Below are positions 1,899 to 14,505 of a stretch of 35,652 nt of DNA, piece by piece. This DNA is from a virus. Taxonomy: Duplodnaviria; Caudoviricetes. Position numbers and translations under genes: made by a program. The stretch covers positions 1 through 35,652 of IMG/VR virus record IMGVR_UViG_3300033067_000948, one strand, 5' to 3'. The notes beneath the pieces were generated by a model. That model did not search any database, was not told the DNA's origin, and was given only the letters and a program-made list of their open reading frames with translations. Each line of letters begins with the position of its first letter. Position 1 is the first letter of the stretch.

Positions 1899-1994
1899 AG
1901 CAGTCGCGGTCGCAAGACCCAGCGAGAAACTGGAGATGTGGGTGGAAGTCCCTCGGGCACCCGGGCCCTCGTTTAAGAGGCCGCGACCGCTACC
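1899..1994 (+). ncRNA. candidate ~95-nt multi-branched, partly tRNA-like non-coding RNA
   Basis: 1899-1909 pairs with 1981-1991 (10 of 11 bp), enclosing GGTC-GCAA-GACC, CCAG-CGAGAAA-CTGG, GTGGG-TGGAAGT-CCCTC and CCTC-GTTTAA-GAGG; GC-rich island between AT-rich flanks; starts at a predicted transcription start. Confidence 0.5.
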
Positions 1995-4419: not shown

Positions 4420-5211
4420 ATGGTAGGTAAGGAAAGACTTGTGTTCGATCCGGCCAATGCAAGCGAAGGCGACAAGATTGCCGGCTACTTGTATGGCGCG
4501 GGCGGCACGCTCATCACATCGACGACAGTCGGTCCGGATGAAGGTCTTGACGTTAATGTCCTGAACACTATCACCGTGCAAGCGACCAACCTGGACATCC
4601 GGGATTTGTCGCATACACAGGATAGCGTAAAGGTCGGCGACGGCACAGACTTCTTGGCTGTTAACGCAGACGGATCCATCAACATCACAGACAACGGCGG
4701 GTCCATCACGGTCGATGGTACCGTGGCCGCCACGCAGTCTGGCTCTTGGACTGTTGCTGCTACCCAAAGCGGCACCTGGACCATTGACAGTATCACTAAC
4801 CCAGTGACTGTCACTGCAACCAACCTTGACATTCGCGACTTGTCTCACACACAGGACAGTATTAAGATTGGTGACGGCACCGATTTCCTCGCCATCAACG
4901 CCGACGGGTCTATCAATACCGTCAGCACTGGCGACCCCGCACTGGCAAATACCGCGCTTGCTGCCTCAGCAACCAGCGTTACCACGTCGGCCACTAACTT
5001 GGTCGCGTCTGCGTTGTCTGGCCGCAAGTACCTGTTTGTGCAGAACCTCGGTAACCGCTCGATCTACCTCGGTGGATCCGGCGTAACCACCTCGGCCGGC
5101 TTCCGCCTCAGCCCAGGCGCAGCCCTGGATGCTCGTATTGGCGCTGCTGTGTCGCTCTACGCGATCACAGACTCTGGCACACAAGACGTGCGTAACCTGG
5201 AACTCAGCTAA
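4420..5211 (+). CDS. putative abundant head fibre/spike protein with internal repeats
   Basis: Strong AGGAGGT SD, own downstream terminator, duplicated 34-aa repeat, C-terminal RKYLFVQNLG...IYLG...GFRLSPG domain. Confidence 0.7.
   Translation: MVGKERLVFDPANASEGDKIAGYLYGAGGTLITSTTVGPDEGLDVNVLNTITVQATNLDIRDLSHTQDSVKVGDGTDFLAVNADGSINITDNGGSITVDGTVAATQSGSWTVAATQSGTWTIDSITNPVTVTATNLDIRDLSHTQDSIKIGDGTDFLAINADGSINTVSTGDPALANTALAASATSVTTSATNLVASALSGRKYLFVQNLGNRSIYLGGSGVTTSAGFRLSPGAALDARIGAAVSLYAITDSGTQDVRNLELS
4582..4917 (+). repeat. intragenic duplication of a 34-codon unit (4582-4683 and 4816-4917)
   Basis: ATNLDIRDLSHTQDSVKVGDGTDFLAVNADGSIN vs ATNLDIRDLSHTQDSIKIGDGTDFLAINADGSIN; two TVAATQSG(S/T)W units lie between them. 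Confidence 0.95.
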
Positions 5212-5219
5212 GTTTAACG

Positions 5220-5238
5220 AGGGGCTTCGGCCCCTTTT
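5220..5238 (+). terminator. intrinsic terminator
   Basis: GGGGC-TTCG-GCCCC followed by TTTT, just after the 4420-5211 stop. Confidence 0.8.
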
Positions 5239-5253
5239 CAAAGGAGCATGTAT

Positions 5254-5490
5254 ATGAATCAGAATTTTACGCAGGCAGACTTTGATTTTACACAAGAATT
5301 TGCCAAGTTTATCCTCAACCGCATGCACGTCAAAGACGCCTCGGTCAAGGACATGATTGACTTCAATAAGATGCTGATTAGGTACAACGACCTGAGTCGC
5401 AAGATTGAGGCCAATATTCTGGAGCTAGGCAAAGTGGTCGAAGCTCCAAAGAAAGCTAAGGCGTCCAAGGCTGCCGCGCCACAGGGGTAA
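5254..5490 (+). CDS. small helical/coiled-coil protein
   Basis: AAGGAG (5241-5246) favours ATG5254 over ATG5248. Confidence 0.65.
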   Translation: MNQNFTQADFDFTQEFAKFILNRMHVKDASVKDMIDFNKMLIRYNDLSRKIEANILELGKVVEAPKKAKASKAAAPQG

Positions 5491-12644: not shown

Positions 12645-14003
12645 ATGGCTACTTCAGCAGTAACGAACCTCGGTGGATTGGACATCGGTAAGTATTTGAA
12701 AATTATCTCTAAGGGCGGAGTTTATAACAACTTGCCCGAAGATTCAGCGATGTGGGAAAACATCCTGAAGAAGAAAAAAGGCACGGACGAAGGCCGCGAA
12801 CTCCGCTACCTTATCCGCTCGGCCTACGGCGCATCTGCAGCCAACTTCATGGCGATCGGCGGCGGCAGCTTCCCGAACGCTCAGAAGTCCAGCCTGCAAG
12901 AAGGTACCGCCCAATACAAAGACTTCGCCCTCACGATCGAAGTACAGCGCGACGTTATCGCCCGTGCTATCAGCGACTTCAGCCGCTACGGCGAGCCCAT
13001 CGCTGAAGAGATCCGCGCCAAGACAATCACGCTCAGCCGTCAGCTGTCCGCAGCTGTCTACGCTGACGGAACTGGCGTACTTGCCCAGGCAACCGGCGCT
13101 GGTACCATCAGCTCTGGCCGCATCGTCCTCCCTCTCGGCTCTGCTTCTACCTCGCGCGGCTTCATCGGCTGGCTCGAACTGGGTGACCGCGTAGTCGTCG
13201 CCACGCTCGCCGGCGTACAGACTGACCCAACCGTCTCTTCCGGCACCTTCGCCTGGTTCTCTGTCTATGACAAGGACCGCAGCGCCGGCACCGTTACGCT
13301 GGAAGCACAAAACTCTGCTGGCACAGCTCTGACTGTGACCGCTACAAACATCCTCAACACTATGGTCATCTACAAGTACGGCAGCCAGATCAACGACTTG
13401 GCTTCCGTTACAACCGAAGATTACAACAGCCTGTCGTACTACTACCCAGGCCTGCAGGCCCTGGCGGCTGCTGATGGTCGCAAAGTCAACGGCTTGACCA
13501 TGAGCGGCGCCCTCAAAGGCACCAAGCGTGATGTCAGCGGCAACCCTATCGACAGTTCCGACTTCCAGAAGCTGATGAGCCAGGTTAAGTTGAATGTCGG
13601 CGCAAACCGCTATAAGTACACCCGCGCTATGATGGCCTGGGAAACTCGCGACGCCCTGGCTGAGAGCCGCGAAACTGACCGTCGCTTTGTGACAATCAAA
13701 GACAACAAGCGCGGTGTGGAAGGCGGACTTGCCTACGTACACGGCAAGGACACGCTGGCTTTTGAAGCTGACGAGTTCTGCCCAACGCAGTCTATCTGGG
13801 TTTGCCCAGAAGGCGACGTTCTCCAGTTCTGGGGCGCGGACTTCGAGTTCGTTGAGCCACAAGCCGGCCAGAAGTTCTTCCTGAAGCCTAACAGCTCGGG
13901 CCACGACAACACCATCCGGTCCTACATGATGGGCCATGGTACTCTTACTTGCGTTCACCCAGCGGCTGTTGGTCAAATCAGTAATTTTACAGTTGGATCA
14001 TAA
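12645..14003 (+). CDS. major capsid protein (HK97 fold, with insertion domain)
   Basis: 452 aa after the scaffold; strongly biased codon usage; RQLSAAVYADGTG and GLQAL motifs typical of this capsid class. Confidence 0.85.
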   Translation: MATSAVTNLGGLDIGKYLKIISKGGVYNNLPEDSAMWENILKKKKGTDEGRELRYLIRSAYGASAANFMAIGGGSFPNAQKSSLQEGTAQYKDFALTIEVQRDVIARAISDFSRYGEPIAEEIRAKTITLSRQLSAAVYADGTGVLAQATGAGTISSGRIVLPLGSASTSRGFIGWLELGDRVVVATLAGVQTDPTVSSGTFAWFSVYDKDRSAGTVTLEAQNSAGTALTVTATNILNTMVIYKYGSQINDLASVTTEDYNSLSYYYPGLQALAAADGRKVNGLTMSGALKGTKRDVSGNPIDSSDFQKLMSQVKLNVGANRYKYTRAMMAWETRDALAESRETDRRFVTIKDNKRGVEGGLAYVHGKDTLAFEADEFCPTQSIWVCPEGDVLQFWGADFEFVEPQAGQKFFLKPNSSGHDNTIRSYMMGHGTLTCVHPAAVGQISNFTVGS

Positions 14004-14013
14004 GGTTACAGCT

Positions 14014-14505
14014 ATGAGCAAAGAAGTGTTGCTTGACAATTTAGAATATGACAATGGGCAACTTAAGTGGAAACACTCTGGACCCAAAAAATCAAAAGGT
14101 AAGATTGCAGGCTCACTTCGACCTGACGGTCGGTACGAAGTTACAATAAACAGGAAAAGGTATCTCCGCAGTCACGCTGTGTGGATGATGTTTAATGGCG
14201 CAATACCGGCCGGCTTAGATGTAGACCACAGGAACACTGTCAAATCTGACGACCGTATTGAAAATCTGCGACTGGCCACAAGGTCGCAGAACCTTCAAAA
14301 TGTCGTAAGAACAAAAGGTAAAGTGTCCAGGTTTAAAGGTGTATCCTTAGACCTAAAAACTGGACTATGGTTTGCCAGGTTATGGCGAACAGAGACTAAG
14401 AAAAGTCAGTCCCTTGGATGGTTTAAGACTGAAGAGGAAGCTGCGGCAGCCTATGATAAAGCGGCCCAATCTTACTCTCAGTATATTCTGACCAACGGGT
14501 CGTGA
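14014..14505 (+). CDS. free-standing HNH-AP2 homing endonuclease
   Basis: VDHRNTVKSDDRIENLRLATRSQNLQN (HNH) plus SRFKGVS...WFARL...LGWFKTEEEAAAAYDKAA (AP2 domain); more AT-rich than its neighbours. Confidence 0.9.
   Translation: MSKEVLLDNLEYDNGQLKWKHSGPKKSKGKIAGSLRPDGRYEVTINRKRYLRSHAVWMMFNGAIPAGLDVDHRNTVKSDDRIENLRLATRSQNLQNVVRTKGKVSRFKGVSLDLKTGLWFARLWRTETKKSQSLGWFKTEEEAAAAYDKAAQSYSQYILTNGS

Follow-up and report, generated by a model that had tools for sequence, protein, structure and literature searches.

The window analyzed here, by which we mean the whole 35,652-nucleotide stretch of DNA, is a phage record that is 60% complete. Family searches identified a sigma70-family factor (670-1236), a large terminase, a portal, and major head genes within it. 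The large terminase is of the conventional type (488 aa); together with the portal it has only distant matches among named phages, and no relative of it was found among GTDB genomes. The candidate RNA at 1899-1994 occupies part of the 556-nt gap that separates a TerS-like gene from an HExxH gene, in a locus that comprises the following features.

670-1236, + strand: phage sigma70-family factor, best NCBIfam subfamily FliA/WhiG, with a score under the subfamily cut-off.
1175-1627, + strand: TerS-like gene, upstream border of the RNA slot.
1658-1686, + strand: second sigma70-type promoter of the cassette, preceding another candidate RNA (about 1692-1780).
1863-1892, + strand: sigma70-type promoter with an extended -10 (TTGACA-18-TG-TAGGAT), 10 of 12 consensus bases.
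1899-1994, + strand: candidate small RNA, 96 nt, 66% G+C between A+T-rich flanks, ends predicted.
1995-2035, strand not assigned: trailer, 85% A+T, resembling the trailer behind a tRNA look-alike in the related phage L002.
2061-2089, - strand: leftward promoter-like site (TTGCAA-17-TG-TATTTT, then G-tracts), facing the candidate RNA.
2125-2131, + strand: GCCGATA box, presumed sigma28-like -10 and candidate late promoter of the structural operon.
2184-2549, + strand: HExxH metallopeptidase-like gene, downstream border of the slot, with weak DUF6782, IrrE/M78, and SprT-like matches (PHROG 1233, 87).

The product of the TerS-like gene had no match in family searches, and a structure search with its predicted model (pLDDT 61) returned no fold match at E<=0.001. 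Ten of the top 50 viral rows of that search were named terminase or packaging small subunit, and it is plausible that the gene encodes a putative TerS. As side observations on the gene content, an HNH endonuclease gene (13936-14505) overlaps the end of the major head gene in the window; the large terminase of the relative L096 (7224-9713) has 829 aa compared to 488 in the window, with an insertion that resembles an intein with a homing endonuclease; and several large-terminase homologs of 816-832 aa bear intein-type Pfam marks.

For the pattern of the promoter at 1863-1892, the window has 6 occurrences where 0.64 are expected; A1899 sits 7 nt past the -10 box of this promoter. Behind this promoter, no long reading frame with a start was found except for a 43-codon frame at 1936, and no intrinsic terminator was found on the + strand downstream of 1899-1994. 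The second promoter of the cassette, at 1658-1686, has a positional counterpart in L002 at 2531. The candidate RNA that it precedes varies between strains, with five substitutions and two indels in 1727-1749 in contigs X2 and X3 and divergence past 1697 in contig X4 (these contigs are described below); an Rfam row for DUF2800 at 1658-1813 was discarded, having 15 bits against a cut-off of 60. The leftward site has counterparts at L002:3138 and L008:2316, and four GGG runs together with an A+T-rich stretch follow it on the - strand (2089-2039); it could give rise to an RNA antisense to the slot or mark an origin or a packaging site. The GCCGATA heptamer at 2125-2131 we take to be a sigma28-like -10 box. 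CCGATA is kept at this position in L002, L003, and X4, and seven of the eight GCCGATA copies in the window are on the + strand, which, along with the FliA/WhiG-like phage sigma factor, makes for a candidate late promoter system.

Within the candidate RNA, the parts are arranged as follows.

1899-1913, + strand: 5' strand of the closing helix, in which two GTCGC copies allow two registers, A (1899-1909) and B (1906-1913), found as inverted repeats I6 and I7.
1919-1933, + strand: arm 2, a 4-bp stem with the 7-nt loop CGAGAAA (1923-1929), pair probability 0.9.
1934-1937, + strand: 4-nt linker AGAT.
1938-1954, + strand: T-loop hairpin, loop UGGAAGU (1943-1949), stem GGG/CCC plus a U.U and a G-C pair.
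1955-1982, + strand: 3' hairpin region, with the alternatives CTC-GTTTAA-GAG (1968-1979) or GGGC/GCCC (1955-1968).
1981-1994, + strand: 3' strand of the closing helix plus ACC, drawn from inverted repeats and fold probabilities.

An earlier note, made from the sequence alone, had proposed a promoter-driven RNA gene outside known families whose predicted start, A1899, coincides with the first base of a closing stem followed by ACC. This held up: the register A stem (1899-1909 with 1981-1991) forms 10 of 11 pairs before the ACC. A stem of this kind near both ends arose in 4 of 5,000 shuffles, and one starting no more than 2 nt from the 5' end arose in 1 of 5,000. Judged from sequence statistics, the promoter and the closing stem are thus real beyond chance; the start at A1899, the transcript itself, and both ends of the element are predictions. 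Register B (1906-1913 with 1983-1990) consists of eight perfect pairs and leaves no ACC overhang. It is the favored register, with a probability of 0.67 within 1899-1994 and of 0.95-0.99 with a few extra 3' bases. Since the base after ACC is a T, CCA is not encoded.

The overall folding stability of the element is unremarkable and constitutes weak evidence. The whole-element fold has a z-score of -1.59, with 13 of 200 shuffles equally stable; the minus strand of the same interval scores -2.0, and a z of -1.6 or lower was also seen in 8.5% of 82 background 96-nt windows. The minimum free energy is -39.8 kcal/mol, compared to -30 to -32 kcal/mol for the structures drawn in the earlier note and -37.7 kcal/mol for a fold that retains both the closing stem and the T-like arm. 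All sub-sequences that had been listed, including the AGAT linker at 1934-1937, lie where they were said to be. They cannot all form together, as the GCAA-capped hairpin (1908-1919) needs G1908 and G1909, which also belong to the closing stem, and C1919, which also belongs to arm 2; this hairpin, which had been cast as a D arm, has a pair probability of only 0.01.

Neither Rfam nor ARAGORN returned a match for 1899-1994, and region 1600-2200 contained no Rfam riboswitch match at E<=10; one DUF3800-XI row was discarded (14 nt, E 9.5). The statement that the element is not a canonical tRNA is borne out by the lack of TTC, of an encoded CCA, and of acceptor geometry. No cloverleaf was called by ARAGORN or by Rfam RF00005, the loop TGGAAGT is not TTCRA, 26 nt separate the T-like arm from the closing strand where a 7-bp acceptor would stack, and CGAGAAA on 4 bp is not a 7-nt anticodon loop on a 5-bp stem with U33. 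A tmRNA was likewise rejected (no ARAGORN or Rfam match with a G3.U70 acceptor and a tag frame), as were FMN and cobalamin riboswitches (no Rfam match with an aptamer core). HDV-like, hammerhead, hairpin, and twister ribozymes, the T-box, and SAM-I were set aside, the core bases or spacing of their consensus being missing and Rfam giving no match. A separate observation concerns the close relative L003, which carries a type II hammerhead ribozyme at 201-263 on the - strand (45.2 bits, above the cut-off).

Sequence searches for homologs were equally negative. A blastn search of 1899-1994 against annotated phages gave chance matches of 25-44 nt alone, none spanning the element. Successive pattern scans of IMG/VR returned 0, 25, and 9 loci, none with a shared architecture on inspection, and the closest one (L016/L118) was rejected, lying inside a reading frame. 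The GTDB pattern scan returned 0 loci, none of the three whole records G001-G003 held a homolog of the element, and both nhmmer over the collected loci and a second covariance model of the element recovered only the element itself. Relaxed tRNA calls by ARAGORN in L067 and L075-L078 were dropped, the L075 call overlapping coding sequence. Because no full-length homolog was found beyond near-identical strains, there is no two-sided covariation for 1899-1994 itself. Titles and abstract openings in the literature described neither this RNA nor the large RNA family presented below. In the supplement of PMC10690425, the motifs of the window are absent from files 3-6 and those of the large family from file 4; its remaining files may bear on novelty.

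According to 10.1101/2022.12.26.521914, the T-loop of FMN and cobalamin riboswitches is a 7-nt loop with the consensus (YGNRA)NY, which excludes the tRNA T-loop. Its 5-nt receptor consists of YNANA and two bulged bases, the latter forming a 2-bp auxiliary helix with bases 3' of the T-loop stem. The loop UGGAAGU (1943-1949) fits this T-loop consensus, and the loop CGAGAAA (1923-1929) fits YNANA plus two bulged bases. Both hairpins occurred together within 45 nt in 42 of 20,000 shuffles, a figure to be read with the proviso that the T-loop match had been partly picked by eye in the earlier note, whereas the receptor match had not. In the window, such a pair is found once on the + strand, at 1899-1994, and four times on the - strand. 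In 771,112 strand-bases of related phage DNA there are 32 such loop pairs, none of which (0/32) lies inside a helix of at least 8 pairs. On these matches, the T-loop is predicted to dock onto the receptor-like loop CGAGAAA. The GTGGG-TGGAAGT-CCCTC segment, previously described as T-arm-like, is a real T-loop-type hairpin, but one of the FMN/cobalamin class rather than of the tRNA type. The T-like stem has a probability of only 0.04 in a thermodynamic ensemble computed without tertiary contacts, where a competing helix (1939-1944 with 1958-1963) stands at 0.6. The 4-bp stem with the CGAGAAA loop is predicted to form (0.9), but its loop fits a T-loop receptor or, in strain X2/X3, a GAGAA loop and not an anticodon. 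The T-loop and receptor arms of 1899-1994 are directly adjacent, unlike those of FMN and cobalamin riboswitches, which are non-consecutive (P2/P6 and P3/P5; P4/P6) (10.1101/2022.12.26.521914).

The slot occupied by the element was then surveyed in relatives through TerS-like homologs and TerL-anchored loci. The profile found the TerS-like gene 50 times, and 36 loci were retained after 14 duplicates were dropped. A gap of at least 120 nt right behind this gene is present in 4 of the 36, namely the window, L002 (identical to L004), L003 (identical to L006), and L008. The other 32 have no such gap; in six distant loci inspected by eye, the next gene directly follows the TerS-like gene. All four slot-bearing loci carry promoter-led candidate RNAs, with contents that differ in each. 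The slot of L002, the closest relative of the window, has two forward promoters, a 214-nt element, a tRNA look-alike, and a trailer similar to that of the window. The tRNA look-alike (L002:2956-3059) has intact acceptor, D, and T arms, the sequence TTCGAAT, a variable arm some 39 nt long, and an anticodon loop of just 3 nt; it scores 32.3 bits with the Rfam tRNA model and is negative with ARAGORN. The neighborhood of the element is tRNA-like to the extent that L002 carries an anticodon-less tRNA look-alike in the same slot. As a side observation, the promoter-led 214-nt element (L002:2734-2947), which has no Rfam match, begins like a D-loop, carries a G-rich hairpin ahead of the 3' strand, and has a perfect 7-bp closing stem plus A; a short element at L003:3494-3533 has the same terminal stem. 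The L003 and L008 slots contain other hairpin elements. Slot RNAs of L002, L003, and L008 have weak fold z-scores, show no T-loop of the FMN/cobalamin class, and give no significant alignment with 1899-1994, the tRNA look-alike included (p=0.81). A terminal stem GGTCG...CGACC common to the window, L002, and L003 was considered and rejected, the alignments not being significant (p=0.55 and 0.41). As far as these loci indicate, 1899-1994 is an accessory part, since relatives swap other RNAs into the slot or have no slot.

Strain variation was examined by comparing contigs of four runs over 1500-2300, of which X2 and X3 come from one study and represent one strain and X9 does not cover the element. 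X2/X3 differ from the window at 2 of the 96 bases of 1899-1994 (A1929G and T1939G), at 13 of 271 bases in 1628-1898, and at 0 of 55 bases in 1995-2049; in the last 128 bases of the TerS-like gene there are 12 changes, all 12 at third codon positions. Since the adjoining 1995-2049 is equally conserved, the low change rate is not specific to the element. A1929G adds a pair to arm 2 and T1939G one to the T-like arm (U.U to G.U), both in hairpins that had been named beforehand, and only 12 of the 288 possible substitutions would add such pairs. These changes support both hairpins and, through the G.U pair, the + strand, on the strength of one strain and of one-sided changes. In an after-the-fact reading, one of the two pairs of the auxiliary helix fits in each allele (A1929-U1953, or G1929-C1954 once G1939.U1953 forms). 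A simpler reading of A1929G is a C-G pair that closes a 5-nt GAGAA loop; arm 2 is no anticodon arm under either reading.

The fourth contig, X4 (depth 4.3), retains the promoter's -35 box and extended -10 at the 18-nt spacing, with 13 spacer bases different. It matches the window at 1882-1900 and 1936-2110, and one A inserted behind 1962 is among the changes listed for 1936-1994 at this low depth. Right behind the kept promoter, about 250 bases stand in place of the 35 bases at 1901-1935 of the window. This replacement would remove arm 2 unless a diverged copy lies within those bases. The roughly 215 extra bases are close to the length of the first element of L002, which suggests that another RNA gene was inserted behind the promoter.

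A search of 76 sources (1,076,637 bases) with a covariance model built on 1899-1994 gave a single non-self match, L096:2155-2245, with an E of about 0.55. The match falls within non-coding sequence that follows a promoter, lies upstream of the TerS-like gene, and is conserved in L089, L090, L091, L092, L093, L096, and L097. A pattern scan for this larger RNA returned 15 loci, 14 of them adjoining a TerS-like gene, and added L137, L139, and L141; L147 looks like chance and was rejected. In total, ten distinct related phage sequences share about 400-500 nt, placed upstream of the TerS-like gene at, for instance, these spans.

L089, about 1876-2300: large RNA.
L093, about 5045-5450: large RNA.
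L096, about 2028-2400: large RNA.
L097, about 4560-4960: large RNA.

The core of the large RNA gave the same set of helices in all nine members parsed. Across five members, pairing is found in 88.6% of cells and two-sided change in 10 of 30 pairs, levels that 0 of 500 shuffles reached, with the structure being derived from these same sequences. By eye, an apparent 5'-to-3' pair alternates between GCCCC/GGGGC and GTACC/GGTAC, and AGAGC/CAGGAGC motifs are repeated. There was no Rfam match, and the large RNA is a candidate for a new ROOL/GOLLD-like class.

The place of that single match raises the question of whether 1899-1994 derives, by shortening or decay, from the central domain of the large RNA that these more distant relatives carry, a relationship that we consider unlikely but worth weighing in full. 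Besides the match itself, pairwise comparisons against shuffles over the same columns gave p=0.0005 end to end for L096 (a selected hit), 0.002 for L090, 0.017 for L097, and 0.036 for L093. With a stem profile of nine members, the window scored above 300 of 300 shuffles, 1,000 of 1,000 interior shuffles, and 1,068 of 1,068 intergenic tiles of 110 nt, also when L096 was left out. Threading recovered register B, the AAGA, an AA bulge, the same small hairpin, and CTGG/CCGG, with CCAG in X4 and in several members. Against this, threading onto the large-RNA core costs 2-5 kcal/mol over the minimum, and an Infernal model of five members that recovered 4 of 4 held-out members at E<=6.4e-9 did not recover 1899-1994 at E<=10. 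The sequence profiles of the large RNA also miss the element, and its stem-profile score is 5.1 bits compared to 61-104 for members, with 2 of 982 non-family tiles of 190 nt scoring higher. Alignments with L089, L091, and L092 are not significant, and among three later members only one is collinear (p=0.06-0.15), the other two aligning in different registers. The 5' and 3' domains of the large RNA and its inner branch of 53-63 nt have no profile match in the window, the branch having a length of 0 in the threading. A1929G also strengthens arm 2, and arm 2 and the large-RNA topology are mutually exclusive. By these sequence comparisons, 1899-1994 is not a member of the large RNA family and has a low probability of remote descent from it, and the slot RNAs of L002, L003, and L008 do not fit it either.

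Taken together, 1899-1994 is probably a genuine accessory RNA, as yet uncatalogued, that combines known motifs. The promoter consensus, the closing stem, the two loop matches, and the swappable slot are seen in the DNA; transcription, 3' trimming, docking, and a decoy role are what we infer from them. Our preferred explanation, which we advance tentatively and at somewhat less than even confidence, is a stable trans-acting, elbow-like decoy RNA with a T-loop/receptor dock, directed at a host RNA-binding or RNA-sensing protein. The host sigma70 polymerase would make the RNA from 1899 using the promoter at 1863-1892, and the 3' end would be trimmed back through the 85% A+T trailer as far as the closing helix. 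The T-loop UGGAAGU would then dock on CGAGAAA, A1925 intercalating between A1946 and A1947, so that arm 2 would stand in for a D-loop and not for an anticodon arm. The result would be a compact elbow-like module without an anticodon and without a chargeable end, which in trans could serve as a decoy for some host protein with affinity for structured or tRNA-shaped RNA.

That the interval is instead a non-functional G+C-rich spacer behind a promoter, its hairpins being chance or left-overs of cassette shuffling, seems improbable. Promoter-stem-loop (PeSL) cassettes are described as driving shuffling in T4-type phages (PMC2839356), the fold z of about -1.6 is one that 8.5% of background windows reach, and no homolog was found outside near-identical strains. 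A mere spacer fits poorly with the frequencies of the closing stem (4/5,000) and the loop pair (42/20,000), with two strain changes that both add pairs, and with the stretch behind the promoter being free of any long frame with a start, save the 43-codon one at 1936.

We give slightly less credence still to a cis-acting 5' leader, i.e., a ligand sensor or antiterminator controlling early read-through into the HExxH gene and the structural operon. Such a leader would account for an element that starts at the predicted +1 with no terminator after it, for a T-loop/receptor pair that is a riboswitch module, and for near-equal alternative folds. However, the riboswitch search of 1600-2200 was negative at E<=10, the element itself is without a terminator or ribosome-binding site, and the next gene is 190 nt away with the conserved GCCGATA box in between. 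Close relatives, moreover, have unrelated sequence here, and X4 places about 215 extra bases between the promoter and the T-loop hairpin.

The tRNA mimic of the earlier note, with arms in the order D, anticodon, variable loop, T and drawing off anticodon nucleases or other tRNA enzymes, is now very doubtful. Phage tRNAs are described as countering tRNA-targeting defenses (PMC10264068, PMC11464382, PMC11555353), and the T-like arm, the ACC after the register A stem, and the L002 look-alike, whose T-stem 3' strand is likewise CCCTC, speak for a mimic. That arm order cannot be sustained, though, for the supposed D arm barely forms (GCAA arm at 0.01) and TTC, the D-loop GG, a U-turn anticodon loop, and a 7/5 acceptor-T geometry are all missing; ARAGORN and Rfam are negative, and the alignment with the look-alike gave p=0.81. 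The element also lacks an anticodon, which counts against a decoy for anticodon nucleases. Finally, the adjoining TerS-like and sigma genes suggest an RNA that serves in packaging or assembly, as phi29 pRNA does, or one that regulates the phage sigma factor, and either is highly improbable: a packaging role does not hold up, as the TerS-like gene stands without the slot in most relatives (32 of 36 loci lack the gap) and the other four, close relatives among them, differ in content, there is no Rfam match, and the phage has a conventional large terminase, while nothing ties the RNA to the sigma factor and no promoter-mimic bubble is evident in the folds.

Among known systems, the nearest kind by analogy would be the small stable phage RNAs of unknown function such as T4 rnaC and rnaD, and the element would work most like a stand-alone T-loop/receptor module. 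In the NC_000866 annotation, rnaC and rnaD are listed only as "small stable RNAs"; they measure 100-140 nt, adjoin tRNA genes, and have short closing stems. The element has no sequence similarity to them (p=0.85 and 0.51), and rnaC has a true TTCGAAT T-arm beside the 3' strand, which the window RNA lacks. With the FMN and class-II cobalamin riboswitch module, as described in 10.1101/2022.12.26.521914, it shares the same 7-nt loop types, and one of the two auxiliary pairs is possible in both alleles. It differs in having no aptamer core, Rfam match, or expression platform, in its consecutive arms, and in its stand-alone, promoter-proximal position. The Y RNA YrlA, according to PMC4201824, is about 100 nt long, occurs in phages, and pairs its ends in a long stem around several arms, one of them T-like. 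Its motif GNCGAAN0-1G (PMC4201824) has 0 matches in 1850-2050, there is no Rfam match, and the order V, T, acceptor-like, D can be drawn but without a tRNA-type T or D loop. A Ro60/TROVE gene was found in 0 of 5 phage records searched, the window's own record being 60% complete, with the control positive in 2 of 14 genomes. phi29-type pRNA differs in the lack of an Rfam match and in the absence of the slot from 32 of 36 loci. ROOL and GOLLD, described as phage RNAs of unknown function near tRNA genes (PMC12286853), are the closest known kind for the 400-500-nt family; the window RNA has only 96 nt, and neither it nor the large family matches any Rfam family. PeSL cassettes of T4-type phages resemble the locus in that strong sigma70-like promoters and stem-loops mark a variable region with swapped contents. 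According to PMC2839356, however, each of their stem-loops is a lone terminator-like hairpin, located at the promoter or ahead of it and leading into short genes, whereas the window has a multi-arm element after the start.

If the preferred decoy reading is true, a riboswitch T-loop/receptor module would be at work in a stand-alone phage RNA, and with 96 nt and a predicted dock this RNA is small enough for probing, crystals, and pull-down. The broader idea that it is a minimal, free-standing module of an RNA world that also holds an undescribed large ornate RNA, with a riboswitch-type dock acting in trans in an anticodon-less elbow decoy that is slot-interchangeable with tRNA look-alikes, is one that we regard as rather unlikely. 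The slot itself offers a test bed for the roles of non-decoding phage RNAs, since tRNA look-alikes and other RNAs replace one another there, behind host-type promoters, among sister phages. The large covarying family, found in ten related phage sequences, is a candidate companion to ROOL and GOLLD that may outweigh the 96-nt finding and deserves a study of its own.
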